The translations under genes and the position numbers were made by a program. DNA of 64,000 nucleotides from Escherichia phage EC128. Below are positions 23,780 through 29,673 of the stretch, one piece after another (the stretch's first letter is position 1; each line of letters starts with the position of its first letter). The notes beneath the pieces were generated by a model. The model did no database searches and had not been told where the DNA came from. It saw only the letters and a list, made by a program, of their open reading frames with translations. The stretch lies in sequence record ON210139.1; one strand, 5' to 3'.

Positions 23780-24528
23780 TATTGTTTATCCTTCTCAATC
23801 AGTTTTAATACGAATCCGCGCTCAGCAGGAATCATTTTCATTATTGAATTTAAGCTATAATTACTTTTTACGAGCGTGTGATTGATTTGATAAAAAGTAA
23901 ATATTTCATCTGGGTTAACTAATAGCTTAAACACATCTACTATATCAGTGTATTTTTTTACATACTTATTACAGCATGACATATGCAATGTTAAATTAAT
24001 AGGATTCATTGCATCGAGAATTTTTTCTAATGTTTCTATCTCGATGGCATCAACAAGTTCTATTTGACTTGATTCGCTAATTTCATTCCAATCATACCAC
24101 ATTTCATCTACTTGAACAGAATGAATATTTTCAGTAATCATCTTTGCTTTATTTTCATAAAACTCAGAAGGAAACTTTAATTTAATTTTAACATTAGCTA
24201 CATCAAAAACAGGTTCCTTTAATTCTTTTTGGTATATTTCAAATGGAACTGTCTTTTCTTTTTTACATTTTGGACATACAAATGTGACCGGTACTTTAGT
24301 TTTACCTATCGACCCTACAAATACCTGCAAAAATATAAATGGTTGCCAAGTCTTCGGATAGTCTCCAAAATAATCAGCAATTAAATCAGCAATTATTTCT
24401 TTTTGTTCTTGTGGTGACCGATGTTCTATATCGTTTCGAACTAACAAAAAATCTCGATAATCTTCTACCGTAAATGGTTTAAAACGATGAACACCATCTG
24501 GTAATTTACAACGAATAATGTTTGCCAT
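23779..24528 (-). CDS. 51: baseplate hub assembly protein gp51, 249 aa
   Basis: Length and position as T4 gp51; SD AAGGAG upstream of ATG. Confidence 0.88.
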
Positions 24529-24545
24529 AGATGCTCCTTTTATTC

Positions 24546-24557
24546 TATTTATAAATA
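24546..24557. promoter_or_regulatory. divergent late promoters for gene 51 (minus) and gene 26 (plus)
   Basis: TATAAATA on plus strand at 24550-24557 and on minus strand at 24546-24553, in the 51/26 intergenic region. Confidence 0.6.
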
Positions 24558-24578
24558 TGATAAATAAAGGAGCTAAAT

Positions 24579-25205
24579 ATGTATGAATACAAATTTGATG
24601 TGAGAGTTGGTTCTAAAATAATCAATTGTCGCGCATTCACGCTTAAAGAATATCTAGAACTTATTACTGCCAAAAATAATGGTTCTGTAGAAGTAATTGT
24701 TAAAAAGCTAATCAAAGACTGCACAAATGCAAAAGATTTAAATCGCCAAGAATCAGAACTATTGTTGATTCATTTATGGGCGCATTCTCTTGGAGAAGTT
24801 AATCACGAAAACTCCTGGAAGTGCACCTGCGGAACTGAAATACCAACCCATATAAATCTATTACATACACAAATAGATGCACCAGAAGACCTCTGGTATA
24901 CACTGGGTGACATTAAAATTAAATTCCGATACCCTAAAATTTTTGATGATAAAAATATAGCCCATATGATAGTATCATGCATAGAAACGATTCATGCTAA
25001 CGGGGAAAGCATTCCAGTTGAAGACTTAAATGAAAAGGAACTAGAAGATTTATATTCTATCATCACAGAGTCAGATATTGTAGCTATAAAAGATATGCTT
25101 TTAAAACCTACCGTTTATTTGGCTGTTCCAATTAAGTGTCCAGAGTGTGGAAAAACCCATGCTCACGTAATAAGAGGCCTCAAAGAGTTCTTTGAGTTAC
25201 TATAA
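24579..25205 (+). CDS. 26: baseplate hub subunit gp26, 208 aa
   Basis: Length and position as T4 gp26. Confidence 0.88.
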
Positions 25206-25603
25206 TGGCAAATATTAATAAGCTTTATTCTGATATTGACCCGGAAATGAAAATGGATTGGAACAAAGATGTTTCCAGATCACTTGGATTAAGGTCAATT
25301 AAAAACAGTCTTTTGGGAATTATTACAACAAGAAAAGGTTCAAGACCGTTTGACCCTGAATTTGGATGTGATTTATCAGACCAGCTTTTTGAAAATATGA
25401 CTCCTCTTACTGCTGACACAGTTGAGCGCAATATTGAAAGCGCAGTAAGAAACTATGAGTCACGTATTGATAAATTATCAGTTAATGTGATACCAGTTTA
25501 TGATGATTATACTCTGATAGTAGAAATACGCTTTTCGGTCATCGATAACCCTGATGATATTGAGCAGATAAAACTGCAACTGGCTTCGAGTAATAGGGTA
25601 TAA
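25205..25603 (+). CDS. 25: baseplate wedge subunit gp25, 132 aa
   Basis: Length and position as T4 gp25. Confidence 0.9.
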   Translation: MANINKLYSDIDPEMKMDWNKDVSRSLGLRSIKNSLLGIITTRKGSRPFDPEFGCDLSDQLFENMTPLTADTVERNIESAVRNYESRIDKLSVNVIPVYDDYTLIVEIRFSVIDNPDDIEQIKLQLASSNRV

Positions 25604-25629
25604 TGCTTCACGTTAAAACGTGGTATAAT
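25602..25629 (+). promoter_or_regulatory. middle (MotA-dependent) promoter upstream of uvsY
   Basis: MotA box AATGCTTCA 25602-25610, 13-nt gap, TATAAT 25624-25629. Confidence 0.6.
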
Positions 25630-25669
25630 GAATCTAAGTCCATCCAATAACAATTGAATAGAGAACAAT

Positions 25670-26083
25670 ATGAGATTAGAAGATCTTCAAGAAGAATTGA
25701 AGAAAGATGTGTTTATAGATTCGACTAAATTACAGTATGAAGCAGCTAATAATGTGATGTTATATAGTAAATGGCTCAATAAGCATTCAAGTATTAAAAA
25801 GGAAATGCTTAGAATTGATGCACAGAAAAAAGTTGCTCTTAAAGCTAAATTAGACTATTACTCGGGACGAGGAGATGGTGATGAATTTAGTATGGATCGT
25901 TACGAGAAATCAGAAATGAAAACAGTTCTATCAGCTGATAAGGATGTTTTAAAGGTTGATACTTCATTGCAATATTGGGGAATTTTATTGGATTTCTGTA
26001 GCGGAGCTCTTGATGCTATTAAATCACGCGGATTTGCTATTAAGCATATTCAAGACATGCGAGCATTTGAGGCTGGAAAATAA
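25670..26083 (+). CDS. uvsY: recombination mediator UvsY, 137 aa
   Basis: MRLEDLQEELKKDVFIDSTKLQYEAANNV.. matches T4 UvsY. Confidence 0.95.
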   Translation: MRLEDLQEELKKDVFIDSTKLQYEAANNVMLYSKWLNKHSSIKKEMLRIDAQKKVALKAKLDYYSGRGDGDEFSMDRYEKSEMKTVLSADKDVLKVDTSLQYWGILLDFCSGALDAIKSRGFAIKHIQDMRAFEAGK

Positions 26084-26307
26084 TGAGATATAGCATTGAT
26101 GATGCTTTTAATTATGAAGAAGAATTTGAAACGGAAATTCAATTCTTAATGAAAAAGCATAATCTTAAGCGTCAGGATATTCGTATCCTGGCCGACCACC
26201 CGTGTGGTGAAGATGTCCTTTATATTAAAGGAAAATTTGCCGGATATCTTGATGAATATTTTTATTCTAAAGATATGGGCATTGATATGCATATGAGAGT
26301 TGTATAA
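26083..26307 (+). CDS. hypothetical protein, 74 aa
   Basis: TAATG overlap with uvsY stop. Confidence 0.6.
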   Translation: MRYSIDDAFNYEEEFETEIQFLMKKHNLKRQDIRILADHPCGEDVLYIKGKFAGYLDEYFYSKDMGIDMHMRVV

Positions 26308-26310
26308 ATA
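26303..26310 (+). promoter_or_regulatory. candidate late promoter TATAAATA
   Basis: Exact TATAAATA 26 nt upstream of the small ORF at 26336. Confidence 0.45.
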
Positions 26311-26335
26311 GATATATAATTCAGAGGAGACAATC

Positions 26336-26503
26336 ATGTCAGATAAGATTTGTGTTGTCTGTAAAACTCCAATCGATTCTGCATTGGTTGTTGAAACAGA
26401 CAAAGGTCCTGTACATCCTGGGCCTTGCTATAATTACATTAAAGAACTACCAGTTTCAGAAAGTTCGGAAGAACAATTAAATGAAACACAACTTTTGCTA
26501 TAG
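26336..26503 (+). CDS. small Cys-containing protein, 55 aa (not in ORF track)
   Basis: ATG 6 nt after SD GAGGAG; translation MSDKICVVCKTPIDSALVVETDKGPVHPGPCYNY..; ends TAG 26501-26503 before a hairpin. Confidence 0.5.
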   Translation: MSDKICVVCKTPIDSALVVETDKGPVHPGPCYNYIKELPVSESSEEQLNETQLLL

Positions 26504-26527
26504 TGTGACCTTTAGTCTATAGTTTTG

Positions 26528-26556
26528 GCCCTTCCTTTTTGGTTGGGCCTTTTTTA
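26528..26556 (+). terminator. candidate terminator after the uvsY transcription unit
   Basis: Stem GGCCC/GGGCC with 13-nt loop followed by TTTTTT. Confidence 0.4.
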
Positions 26557-26558
26557 AT

Positions 26559-26789
26559 TTAAAAGCTTTCTTCTACTTCATCGTCTGAATCTTCTAATTC
26601 AGCTCTTTTTCCTGCCAAAGCATCTCTCACAGAGATGTCATCAGTATCTTTTAATTCAGTTTCTTTGACTCTTTTCTTATAATAAGCTTCAAGTTCTTCT
26701 AAACCTTCTAATGTTTGACAAGAGGCAATTTTACCCATAAATTCATCAATAGAAGCTTCATAAAGAAATTGTTTAAATCCTAGTAACAT
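26559..26789 (-). CDS. uvsW.1: UvsW.1, small protein encoded after uvsW, 76 aa
   Basis: MLLGFKQFLYEASIDEFMGKIASCQTLEGLEELEAYYKK.. with acidic C-terminus; ATG at 26789 chosen over track TTG start. Confidence 0.8.
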   Translation of the reverse strand: MLLGFKQFLYEASIDEFMGKIASCQTLEGLEELEAYYKKRVKETELKDTDDISVRDALAGKRAELEDSDDEVEESF

Positions 26790-26814
26790 CTTTTTCTCCA
26801 AAGGGCCGAAGCCC

Positions 26815-28323
26815 TTATAAATTAACTGTTTTCATTACGTAATTAAATTTTTCATCTGCGTAGCGCTGAATACGATCAATGCCGTGTTTTAAAAGATAGT
26901 TCAAATGAACATATTTCTTTTTCGTATTAGCAGATTTTGGCTTAACGCCCGCGTCATCTATAAGATCCCAGACTGTTGCTATTGTCTTAGAACCATGCTT
27001 ACGTAATACACGACCGATTGTTTGTAATACAATGATTTTTGATTTAACACCGTGCGCTAAAACAACGTGATGTAGATTTTTAACTGAAATACCAGTAGAA
27101 AATACACCATAACTAGCTACTATAATTATTCCTTTACCATTTTCAGCTAAGGTTTTCATTATATTGCGGGTTTCGGTATCAACTTCCCCTGATACGTAAT
27201 AAACTTTATCGTATTCATTTTTAATTAAATCGAAAATAGCTTTACCATGCGATACATGTTTAAACATGACAAAAGCGTTTTCATCTTTTTGTGCAAGCTT
27301 AATAGCTAATTTAGCGATCCATTTATTTCTTTTACTGAGCCCAGTAATAATTTTTATTTCTTCTTGGTAAGTTTTTCCCTTTAATTTAGTAGTGAACTCA
27401 TCGGGATAGCGAAGAAAAATACTATTAATTTTTAACTCAGTTACTTGTCCATCTTCCATTAATTTAGAGGTCGTTACTGGCTTAAATATTTCACCAAACA
27501 TTCCAACATACTGCATGATATTGGCTTTGCCATCACGTAATGAACCAGATAGACCAAATTTAAACATACAGTTATTTAAACCTGATATGATAGATGAAAT
27601 ACTTTTTCCTGTAGCAAGATGGCATTCATCATTCATCATCATTCCAAACTGTGAGAACCATTCTTTTGGTTGTTTAACTACAGTTTGCCATGTACCAACA
27701 ACGACTGGTGCATCATTTTTATATTTATCATCTTTTGATGCTCCGCCACCAATTTTCTTTATCATTGCATGGCTGAATAAACGATAGTCGACGAAGTCAT
27801 CAGCCATCTGAGTTGTCAGAGCAGTTGTTGGAACAATGATAAGAATTTTACCTTCATAATTTTCCAAATAATACCGCGCAAGCAAAGCTTGAATTAAAGA
27901 TTTACCTGCAGATGTTGGAAGATTAAGAATTCTACGACGATTAACTAATCCTTCGAACACTGCATCTTTTTGATACCAATGCGGTTCAATTCTTTTATTT
28001 CCTGAATAGATTTCTAATTTAGAAAGCCATTCATCAAAATCTTTTCTTGATAATTCTTCTTTTTCGTTAATCTGTGGGTCAATCCAGGCTTTATAGCCAA
28101 AGTTATCGCAGAACTTTTTAATTTGCCCGACTAAGCCGAATGGAAGAAGACGATTATAATCTAAAAGACGGATTCGTCCATCCCAGTTGCCATATCTGAA
28201 GCGAGGATTAAACCTATATCCATCGGCCTCAAACGAAAAGAAATCTCTTAATTCGTGGAACGTGCTCTCTTCACAATCGATGCGTACATGGCTGAAGTCG
28301 TGAAAATGTACTTTAATATCCAT
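26815..28323 (-). CDS. uvsW: UvsW DNA/RNA helicase, 502 aa
   Basis: SF2 helicase motifs LPTSAGKS (Walker A) and DECH box; matches T4 UvsW. Confidence 0.95.
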   Translation of the reverse strand: MDIKVHFHDFSHVRIDCEESTFHELRDFFSFEADGYRFNPRFRYGNWDGRIRLLDYNRLLPFGLVGQIKKFCDNFGYKAWIDPQINEKEELSRKDFDEWLSKLEIYSGNKRIEPHWYQKDAVFEGLVNRRRILNLPTSAGKSLIQALLARYYLENYEGKILIIVPTTALTTQMADDFVDYRLFSHAMIKKIGGGASKDDKYKNDAPVVVGTWQTVVKQPKEWFSQFGMMMNDECHLATGKSISSIISGLNNCMFKFGLSGSLRDGKANIMQYVGMFGEIFKPVTTSKLMEDGQVTELKINSIFLRYPDEFTTKLKGKTYQEEIKIITGLSKRNKWIAKLAIKLAQKDENAFVMFKHVSHGKAIFDLIKNEYDKVYYVSGEVDTETRNIMKTLAENGKGIIIVASYGVFSTGISVKNLHHVVLAHGVKSKIIVLQTIGRVLRKHGSKTIATVWDLIDDAGVKPKSANTKKKYVHLNYLLKHGIDRIQRYADEKFNYVMKTVNL

Positions 28324-28325
28324 AA

Positions 28326-28943
28326 TTATGCCTTACTAAATTTGCCTTTAGAATCTCTTTTCATGAGACGACCTTTAATAAATCCGTCGGGAATAATACC
28401 GTCTGGTTGTATTAATTTATTTATTGCACCGTTATTGACCCAAAAAGTTCCTGTGGTAGTCGGTTTGACTTTACATCCTTTTCTGGACTTTCTATTAGGA
28501 TGAACCATTCCTTTTACAAATCCTTCTGGAACAAGTTCTCCAGGTTTAATAAAAATATTTTTAGTTCCATTGGTGTAACAAGTTGTACCTAATACCGTGC
28601 CCGGTGAGTTTTCAAATCTCTTAGCGGAAGATTCTTTCATCTTTGCTATAACCTCTGTAGTCATAACAATTCCACCAATTCCACCAGGTTTCATATTATA
28701 ATAATTTTTGCTTTTTATTATTTCAGGAGTTATAATTTCTTCTTCATACATGTACGCTTCTTCGGAAGTTTTAAACTCTTTTAGTATTGTTCTAGAGAAA
28801 TTGTTTTCACCATATTTCTTTATAGCCTGCTGAATTGCCTTACCGGAACCAAGGTAACCATCATTCAAGTCATCAGTAGAGTGTTTTCCTATATACTTTT
28901 TACCGTTTATTAGATTTGTTGTTTCATATACAAAGTGGTACAT
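28326..28943 (-). CDS. segE: free-standing GIY-YIG homing endonuclease (SegE-like), 205 aa
   Basis: N-terminal GIY-YIG module YHFVYETTNLINGKKYIGKH; lies between uvsW and inh, where I recall T4 segE. Confidence 0.75.
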   Translation of the reverse strand: MYHFVYETTNLINGKKYIGKHSTDDLNDGYLGSGKAIQQAIKKYGENNFSRTILKEFKTSEEAYMYEEEIITPEIIKSKNYYNMKPGGIGGIVMTTEVIAKMKESSAKRFENSPGTVLGTTCYTNGTKNIFIKPGELVPEGFVKGMVHPNRKSRKGCKVKPTTTGTFWVNNGAINKLIQPDGIIPDGFIKGRLMKRDSKGKFSKA

Positions 28944-28971
28944 ACTATTTTCCGAGTAATAAATATATCTA

Positions 28972-28979
28972 TATTTATA
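28972..28979 (-). promoter_or_regulatory. candidate late promoter for the GIY-YIG endonuclease gene
   Basis: Plus-strand TATTTATA, i.e. TATAAATA on minus strand, about 29 nt upstream of the endonuclease ATG. Confidence 0.5.
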
Positions 28980-28992
28980 CTGAGGAAATATT

Positions 28993-29673
28993 ATGATAGA
29001 TAAAGATTATATTGCAGAGCTGAAGGCTCTTGATGATAACAAAGAAGCTAAAGCTAAATTAGCTGAATATGCTGAACAGTTTGGTATAAAGGTCAAAAAG
29101 AATAAATCTTTTGATAATATCGTTGTTGATATTGAAGAAGCCCTCCAGAAGCTCGCTAGTGAACCTATGCCAGAGACTGATGGGTTATCTATTAAAGACC
29201 TAATTGATGCTGCTGATGCCGCAGAGGGATTAAAATATGACGATGAAGAAGTCAATCCAGAAGCAGCACTTCTGATTGATTCTCCGGTTAAATCTGACAT
29301 TAAAATTGAAGTAGTAGAAACGGATAAAATTCCTGAAAATACCTCAGTTTTGATTGAAGATACTCCTTTTGTTGAAGAAAAATTCGAACAGGCTGTAGCT
29401 GAGATTGTTGAATCTGAAAAGCCGTCTGTATTTACTCTTCCGGAAAACTTTAGTCCGAATCTTCAGCTGATTGGAAAAAATCCAGGATTCTGTACTGTTC
29501 CTTGGTGGATTTATCAATGGATTGCTGAAACTCCGGATTGGAAATCTCACCCAACTAGTTTTGAACATGCGTCAGCACACCAAACTTTATTTAGCTTAAT
29601 TTATTACATTAACCGTGACGGATCAGTTTTAATTCGTGAAACACGCAATTCTTCTTTCGTAACATTAAAATAA
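28993..29673 (+). CDS. inh: Inh, inhibitor of prohead protease, 226 aa
   Basis: Length and position (adjacent to hoc) as in T4; SD GAGGA. Confidence 0.8.
   Translation: MIDKDYIAELKALDDNKEAKAKLAEYAEQFGIKVKKNKSFDNIVVDIEEALQKLASEPMPETDGLSIKDLIDAADAAEGLKYDDEEVNPEAALLIDSPVKSDIKIEVVETDKIPENTSVLIEDTPFVEEKFEQAVAEIVESEKPSVFTLPENFSPNLQLIGKNPGFCTVPWWIYQWIAETPDWKSHPTSFEHASAHQTLFSLIYYINRDGSVLIRETRNSSFVTLK

Follow-up and report, generated by a model that had tools for sequence, protein, structure and literature searches.

Downstream of the recombination mediator gene uvsY, bacteriophage T4 carries a small gene named uvsY.-2 (T4p185, NP_049797.1 / AAD42525.1, UniProt Q00778). It has been part of the T4 annotation for decades, as 'UvsY.-2 conserved hypothetical protein', and has a Pfam family of its own, DUF2685 (PF10886). 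The T4 gene order is uvsW, uvsY.-2 (114496-114663), uvsY.-1, uvsY and 25. In the same functional neighbourhood, the C-terminal tail of the T4 protein gp32 contacts UvsY, UvsX, gp59, Dda and gp43 and acts as a docking peptide for replication and recombination proteins. We analysed 64,000 nucleotides of Escherichia phage EC128 (ON210139.1; the whole stretch is referred to here as the window), in which an open reading frame (ORF) of 55 codons lies downstream of uvsY. This ORF is the long-known T4 gene uvsY.-2, annotated in hundreds of phage genomes. It encodes a predicted zinc finger followed by a conserved acidic tail, and we tentatively suggest that its product is an adaptor or regulator of the UvsY/UvsW module.

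The window product, translated as MSDKICVVCKTPIDSALVVETDKGPVHPGPCYNYIKELPVSESSEEQLNETQLLL, was 100% identical in amino acid sequence to T4 UvsY.-2 (tblastn) and contained Cys6-x2-Cys9, His27 and Cys31. Its score against DUF2685 was 119 bits (cutoff 25, E=9.3e-35), with residues 3-55 covering all 55 positions of the profile, and it also matched PHROG 1043, which is labelled 'unknown function'. The computed mass of 6,062 Da agreed with the label '6.1 kDa protein' carried by some records. The region was colinear with T4 positions 112000-117500, with a DNA identity of 97.8% over 5.5 kb, and the gene order was identical. The window is accordingly DNA of a close relative or variant of T4. The genes for gp26, gp25, UvsY, a 74-amino-acid ORF and UvsY.-2 were followed by the convergent genes for UvsW.1, UvsW and SegE, and then by the gene for Inh on the plus strand. 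The protein, its full-length hidden Markov model match and its place between uvsY(.-1) and uvsW.1 were the same as in T4, with no difference between the two proteins.

A preliminary description of this DNA, made from the sequence alone, had reported an unannotated ATG-initiated ORF of 55 amino acids downstream of uvsY, with a CxxC pair and a further His and Cys, and had proposed a comparison with the small T4 ORFs beside uvsY. The ORF was present as described and in the place described, and the small T4 ORF beside uvsY turned out to be uvsY.-2, in the same position. The word 'unannotated' did not survive the matches to T4, Pfam and PHROG. Since the gene is already annotated in T4, the word is true only of the six-frame track, which listed ORFs of at least 60 amino acids.

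The length of the ORF is not significant by itself, as 34 ORFs of at least 30 amino acids overlap positions 24000-29000 in this A+T-rich DNA. The case for a gene rests instead on the Pfam match, on selection, on the expression signals and on proteomics. Homologues were found by tblastn in at least 1,251 phage records, ranging from Escherichia phages to phages of Acinetobacter, Aeromonas and Vibrio. An exhaustive HMMER search over 1.84 billion representatives gave 65 matches at E<=0.001, about 60 of which are proteins of 50-65 amino acids; at an identity of 50% or less, the family amounted to about 60 clusters. Conservation was assessed in an alignment of 57 diverse members, 35-64% identical to the T4 protein, and all 57 matched DUF2685. 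When eight orthologues were compared at the codon level, the pairwise ratio of non-synonymous to synonymous substitution (dN/dS) was 0.09-0.33 except in one close pair, where it reached 0.53, and synonymous sites were saturated or nearly so. By this measure the reading frame is under purifying selection, and its conservation in relatives, on which the preliminary description had made its proposal depend, was found. We also considered whether an overlapping ORF, antisense or in a different frame, imposes this conservation; the dN/dS of the plus-strand frame speaks against it. NCBIfam and PADLOC searches of UvsY.-2 returned no match. An Rfam scan of positions 25500-27000 was also without a match and gave no indication of an RNA element there, and a Foldseek search of BFVD with the UvsY.-2 model returned only uncharacterised family members.

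Published data provide the evidence of expression. The preliminary description had named proteomics of late-infected cells as a check, and in a multi-omics study of T4 the UvsY.-2 protein (Q00778) was indeed detected, with protein class late and RNA class 'middle' (PMC9697503 supplement). In a dCas13d CRISPRi-ART knockdown screen from 2025, uvsY.-2 was rated 'Semi-Fit', with three guides at about 2.1-2.3 (PMC11879866). Knockdown with a single guide gave plaques of about 50-140, against 140-290 in the control (in the units of the table), and a titre lower by at most 2-fold. It was apparently an sfGFP-linker-UvsY.-2 construct that complemented the defect, and the gene is rated 'important for T4 infection' by the authors (PMC11879866). 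UvsY.-2 is thereby one of the few function-unknown T4 genes with an experimentally confirmed fitness effect (PMC11879866). No publication giving it a function, a mechanism or interaction data was found in the searchable literature. We regard it as virtually certain that uvsY.-2 is a real, expressed gene.

The ORF had also been credited with its own late promoter and a strong Shine-Dalgarno sequence. The latter was confirmed (Table 1). The late-promoter box was likewise present, and TATAAATA was enriched in the window, with 20 occurrences against 9.4 +/- 3.0 in shuffled sequences (maximum 16; none of 100 shuffles reached 20). The record of phage Lutter has a 'promoter' annotated at the position identical to that of the uvsY.-2 box. 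Upstream of the orthologue, the box was exact in Acinetobacter phage Maestro, Salmonella phage KM16 and Serratia phage Muldoon, and had one mismatch in WG01, KEN39, X20 and PSTCR6; orthologues in seven other genera have an exact or one-mismatch late box at the corresponding position. The claim of an own promoter held only in part, however, as the box is supported but is probably not the only source of transcripts. Upstream of uvsY lies a middle-promoter-like site, whose TGCTTCA element resembles the MotA box of T4 middle promoters. This site is a likely source of transcripts reading through uvsY, uvsY.-1 and uvsY.-2. With no terminator in between, such read-through would explain the 'middle' class of the RNA. 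The TAA stop codon of uvsY.-1 (26305-26307) lies inside the TATAAATA box, so that one octamer forms the end of a gene and the predicted promoter of the next. Elsewhere in the window, the short gap separating genes 51 and 26, which diverge from it, contains a pair of overlapping TATAAATA boxes at 24546-24557, one on the minus strand (24546-24553) and one on the plus strand (24550-24557). The pair resembles a compact late promoter that works in both directions, and the same arrangement is annotated in phage Lutter.

The intrinsic-terminator-like hairpin beyond the gene had a folding energy of -20.9 kcal/mol (z=-4.3). An equivalent G+C hairpin followed by a T-run was found 3' of the orthologue in WG01, KEN39, KM16, X20, Phi1, Muldoon and Aeromonas phage 31. 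A simple terminator scan did not list the hairpin at 26527-26555, probably because of an internal loop in its stem, and we accepted it on folding and conservation and not on the scan. Immediately 5' of it, a second, A+U-rich hairpin (GCUAUAG...CUAUAGU, 26497-26523) includes the stop codon of uvsY.-2.

Within the protein, C6, C9, C31 and E42 were invariant in the alignment (57/57). Position 27 was His in 55 of the 57 members and Cys in the other two, and it is also Cys in Klebsiella phage KP15. Such a His/Cys swap is the behaviour of a metal ligand and supports a metal site. The Cys and His residues that had been put forward as possible metal ligands therefore form a metal-site-like set, with the spacing C-x2-C-x17-[H/C]-x3-C kept across the family. 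Other conserved positions were K10 (56/57), G24 (53/57) and G29 (55/57). An AlphaFold2 model built on the 57-sequence alignment had a predicted local distance difference test (pLDDT) score of 80 overall and 83-90 for residues 1-40. It contained a knuckle, a beta-hairpin (19-21 and 24-26) and a helix (30-37), and 38 modelled residues superposed on eL24/Rlp24 at 1.4-1.5 A. Weak Pfam matches were obtained to zf-FCS, zf-FLZ, DUF2175 and zf-Vps39_C. A PDB search with the diverse profile gave a borderline match to the Vps39 zinc finger (E=0.0016) and nothing else, and a PDB sequence search with a profile of close relatives gave no significant match. From the ligand pattern and the predicted fold class we infer that UvsY.-2 binds zinc, and its finger is very probably a zinc-binding treble clef, apparently of the Cys2-His-Cys type and Cys4 in some lineages.

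The tail had low pLDDT yet was strongly conserved. Position 40 was always hydrophobic, and the invariant E42 was followed by S43 (42/57) and then by an acidic run. The C-terminal motif can be written L48-x-E50-[TVI]51-[QE]52-L53-[LI]54, usually with one further hydrophobic residue; L53 was present in 49 and L54 in 48 of the 57 sequences. The family was acidic throughout, with a median isoelectric point of 4.5 and a median tail net charge of -4. Acidity this uniform speaks for docking on a protein and makes direct contact with nucleic acid less likely. A C-terminal motif shared with other window proteins was looked for and rejected, as only gp26 ('...EFFELL') was loosely similar.

Gene linkage was surveyed in 10 sampled divergent metagenomic representatives, chosen regardless of outcome, and in about 15 isolate genomes. 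DUF2685 directly adjoined uvsY in 8 of the 10 metagenomic representatives, and in 7 of those 8 the two genes overlapped by 1-4 nucleotides. Overlaps of this size, seen in many relatives, suggest co-translation with uvsY. Two lineages (L016/L017 and L022) had the inverted order Dda-like helicase, (YqeY-like gene,) DUF2685, uvsY. In two further metagenomic loci (L015 and L018) uvsY was near DUF2685 with no uvsW nearby, and in Klebsiella phage KP15 the upstream gene was gp24, not gp25, with DUF2685 still next to uvsY. The gene stood just before convergent uvsW.1/uvsW in T4, WG01, KEN39, KM16, X20, PSTCR6, Muldoon, Phi1, KP15, the Vibrio phages VS1/V05 and Aeromonas phage 31. It was immediately preceded by uvsY in KEN39, KM16, X20, Phi1 and KP15, whereas one small ORF intervened in T4 and WG01 and two genes did so in Vibrio phages. 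The small ORF uvsY.-1 was far less widespread than uvsY.-2, and in most of the other genera examined no uvsY.-1 separated uvsY from DUF2685. Across the loci examined, uvsY was the most constant neighbour and uvsW the next. An adjacency to uvsY that survives inversion of the order, together with the overlapping codons, is the best functional clue available.

We suggest that transcription of uvsY.-2 would start at a gp55-type late promoter of its own, probably supplemented by read-through from the promoters of uvsY, with the transcript ending at the hairpin terminator before the convergent uvsW.1. The product would be an acidic 6.1-kDa protein with an N-terminal treble-clef finger of the TRASH/eL24/YacG type and a flexible acidic tail, most likely acting by binding protein and not nucleic acid. 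As a small adaptor or regulator, it would dock by its tail and finger on a recombination or repair component encoded next to it, with UvsY as the first candidate partner and then UvsW or UvsW.1. Such docking would modulate late recombination-dependent DNA replication or repair and would thereby account for the small plaques seen on knockdown. The data establish the identity, conservation, expression, ligand pattern and linkage of the gene, whereas the docking role of the tail and the identity of the partner are what we infer here. A zinc-finger adaptor or regulator of the UvsY/UvsW module that docks via its tail is a reading to which we give somewhat less than an even chance, and the placing of its partner within that module is, if anything, slightly more tentative. 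A more specific version is doubtful, namely that UvsY.-2 is an unrecognised zinc-finger subunit or regulator whose invariant-Glu tail and ETQLL end dock UvsY (or UvsW) and so time or restrain late recombination-dependent replication.

Several observations weigh against a role in the UvsY/UvsW module. T4-like genomes are strongly syntenic, and the adjacency could be inherited order and not functional coupling. No uvsY was found within 2.5 kb of uvsY.-2 in Aeromonas phages 31 and avDM10 or in Acinetobacter phage Maestro. In one cyanophage uvsY and uvsW were close together, but DUF2685 was not found even at E<=10. In the knockdown screen, uvsY, uvsY.-1 and uvsW were all 'Not Fit', against 'Semi-Fit' for uvsY.-2 (PMC11879866). 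This contrast is awkward for a simple, positive UvsY cofactor and is better fitted by a restraining regulator or by an unrelated target. Either knockdown efficiency varies by gene, or UvsY.-2 restrains its partner, or its target lies elsewhere.

A target elsewhere could be a host protein. UvsY.-2 would then be an inhibitor or modulator of that protein, or an anti-defence factor, and its position beside uvsY would be merely historical. Its models would be E. coli YacG, which plugs GyrB, and B. subtilis CsfB/Gin, which blocks sigma-G. We consider this unlikely. With its core and tail invariant, the family is kept in phages of hosts as different as Escherichia, Klebsiella, Acinetobacter, Aeromonas, Vibrio and Shewanella. 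Such conservation across hosts is seen more typically in core interactions between phage components than in anti-host genes, which evolve fast. DUF2685 was the only Pfam match of the window protein, which excludes a YacG-family match, and there was no PADLOC match; the tight translational coupling to uvsY would also be left unexplained. A late morphogenesis factor tied to the baseplate, such as a zinc-dependent chaperone or minor virion component co-expressed with genes 26 and 25, would account for the late promoter, the late protein class and the location downstream of the 26-25 late unit in T4. In Maestro and Aeromonas phage 31, moreover, the gene follows gp25 directly or after one gene, with uvsY not nearby, and smaller plaques are compatible with less efficient assembly. 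The reading is nevertheless improbable. In KP15 the gene comes after gp24 and uvsY, and no baseplate genes are near it; its neighbours in L016 and L022 are Dda- or YqeY-like genes on one side and uvsY on the other. These contexts leave uvsY or uvsW, and not gp25, as the constant neighbour. Nor was a report of UvsY.-2 in virions found, although no search aimed at virion proteomes was made.

Very improbable, in our judgement, is a client of the sliding clamp or replisome, in which the C-terminal Q-L-L-hydrophobic sequence binds the host beta clamp or T4 gp45, or the tail mimics that of gp32. Such a role would link UvsY.-2 with replication, or with late transcription coupled to it. The family conserves its extreme C-terminus, with Gln or Glu before Leu-Leu, and the C-terminus of gp32 (SSSSADDTDLDDLLNDL) is likewise Ser-rich, acidic and Leu-containing. 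The bacterial clamp motif, however, is QL[SD]LF or QLxLxL, with 5-6 residues and an aromatic residue or Leu at its end, whereas the C-terminus of UvsY.-2 offers only 3-4 residues, the Gln included. The C-termini of the family read [QE]-L-[LI]-[LMI], 10 of the 57 stop at LL and Vibrio forms end in QLLNG. There is no aromatic residue, unlike in the T4/RB69 gp45-binding peptides. A motif binding the beta clamp or gp45 was accordingly rejected as too short, lacking an aromatic residue and not universal. In a by-eye alignment of the C-termini with that of gp32, only L(-8), L(-1) and one acidic position coincided.

The positions of the features of the locus are collected in Table 1.

Table 1. Features of the uvsY.-2 locus in the window, and YqeY-like genes beside DUF2685 in other loci (the latter in the coordinates of their own loci)
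Feature	Position	Strand	Description
uvsY.-2 coding sequence	26336..26503	+	ATG start, 55 amino acids and stop; 6,062 Da, isoelectric point 4.4
Predicted treble-clef (TRASH/eL24-like) zinc-finger domain	26345..26446	+	Codons 4-37
Putative ligand codons	C6 26351-26353; C9 26360-26362; H27 26414-26416; C31 26426-26428	+	
Acidic tail	26447..26500	+	Codons 38-55; E42 at 26459-26461; low model confidence, probably flexible
Late-promoter consensus TATAAATA (gp55-type)	26303..26310	+	Predicted from sequence; 25 nucleotides upstream of the uvsY.-2 ATG
Shine-Dalgarno sequence GAGGAG	26324..26329	+	6-nucleotide spacer to ATG; GGAG or GAGGAG conserved in relatives
Middle-promoter-like site	25604..25629	+	TGCTTCA 25604-25610, 13-nucleotide spacer, TATAAT 25624-25629; upstream of uvsY
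Intrinsic-terminator-like hairpin	GGCCC...GGGCC 26527-26549; T6 26550-26555	+	Between convergent uvsY.-2 and uvsW.1
uvsY	25670..26083	+	Recombination mediator, 137 amino acids; Pfam UvsY E=4.5e-52; T4 annotation; first of co-oriented cluster
uvsY.-1	26083..26307	+	74 amino acids; PHROG 1541 E=6e-47, no Pfam match; T4 annotation
uvsW.1	26559..26801	-	Small acidic protein, convergent; Pfam UvsW-1 E=1.7e-30
uvsW	26815..28323	-	RNA-DNA and DNA-DNA helicase, 502 amino acids, isoelectric point 9.3
YqeY-like gene	L016 3564-4004		
YqeY-like gene	L024 663-1079		
YqeY-like gene	L004 2004-2474		
YqeY-like gene	L005 1913-2326		By position and size only
YqeY-like gene	L030 3411-3824		By position and size only

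The window and most relatives have separate UvsW (502 amino acids) and UvsW.1 (about 76-80 amino acids) genes. The T4 reference NC_000866 has a single uvsW coding sequence of 1,764 nucleotides at 112677-114440, with a note on sequence discrepancies. Between uvsW and inh, a GIY-YIG homing endonuclease gene (SegE in T4) occupies positions 28326-28943 on the minus strand of the window. Phage Lutter, otherwise 99.5% identical, is without SegE at that position, a presence/absence polymorphism typical of a mobile gene. One metagenomic uvsW (L024 3137-5282, minus strand) was apparently interrupted by an intein, with Hint and Intein_splicing matches, and had been called as three pieces.

Outside the T-even group, the immediate neighbour of DUF2685 was recurrently a YqeY/GatB_Yqey-like gene, about 135-155 amino acids in length. 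Two metagenomic lineages and phages of Aeromonas and Vibrio had it, either between uvsY and DUF2685 or just upstream of both. In some T4-like phages (L014 487-867; P0030, PHROG 26998), an ORF of 126 amino acids directly after uvsY joined an unrelated N-terminal part of 72 amino acids to a complete DUF2685. The DUF2685 part begins with its own Met, and the arrangement is either a true fusion or an internal start. It was rejected as a Rosetta-stone fusion of uvsY.-1 and uvsY.-2, the N-terminal part having no similarity to T4 UvsY.-1. On a short contig of 2,095 bp (L025, P0066) no recognisable uvsY was found beside a divergent DUF2685. The neighbours there gave only faint RHS-repeat / YD-shell and sub-threshold CdiI_3 matches, and the context could be non-T4-like or bacterial. 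In Shewanella phage Thanatos-2 (MT457553.1; L021 6612-6929) a gene of the Acb2/Tad1-hairpin family, whose members are anti-CBASS / anti-Thoeris sponges, lies just beyond inh, three genes from DUF2685.

While the gene itself was already known, the present analysis adds to the description of its family a set of four ligands in which His and Cys alternate at one position, a Glu that never varies, a motif in the tail, acidity throughout and an association with uvsY that persists in both gene orders. These provide concrete targets, namely the four putative metal ligands, Glu42, the C-terminal peptide and the candidate partners UvsY, UvsW and UvsW.1. The list of partners was drawn from a gene linkage that persists where gene order differs. 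If the link to UvsY is true, UvsY.-2 would be a conserved extra player in the textbook T4 presynaptic-filament system. On the more specific version given above, it would be a new, widely conserved component of one of the best-studied recombination systems.

The predicted finger is similar in ligand spacing to the TRASH/eL24/FCS fingers (C-x2-C-x(about 19-22)-C-x3-C) and its predicted topology resembles theirs: the model has a zinc knuckle and a beta-hairpin, and the final pair of ligands sits where a helix begins. Unlike them, it usually has His and not Cys as the third ligand, and it has no significant sequence membership in these families. Furthermore, eL24 is a basic RNA binder, whereas UvsY.-2 is acidic and has a conserved acidic tail of its own. 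The likeness of that tail to the C-terminal A-domain of gp32 is one of composition only, with no motif that can be aligned, and gp32 is without a comparable invariant Glu or S-E-S element. YacG, the E. coli gyrase inhibitor, is no relative of UvsY.-2. The window protein had no match to Pfam zf-YacG, the two proteins were 10% identical in a structural alignment and their tail motifs differ. As a tiny zinc finger with a docking tail, YacG is nonetheless the closest analogue of the way in which UvsY.-2 may work.

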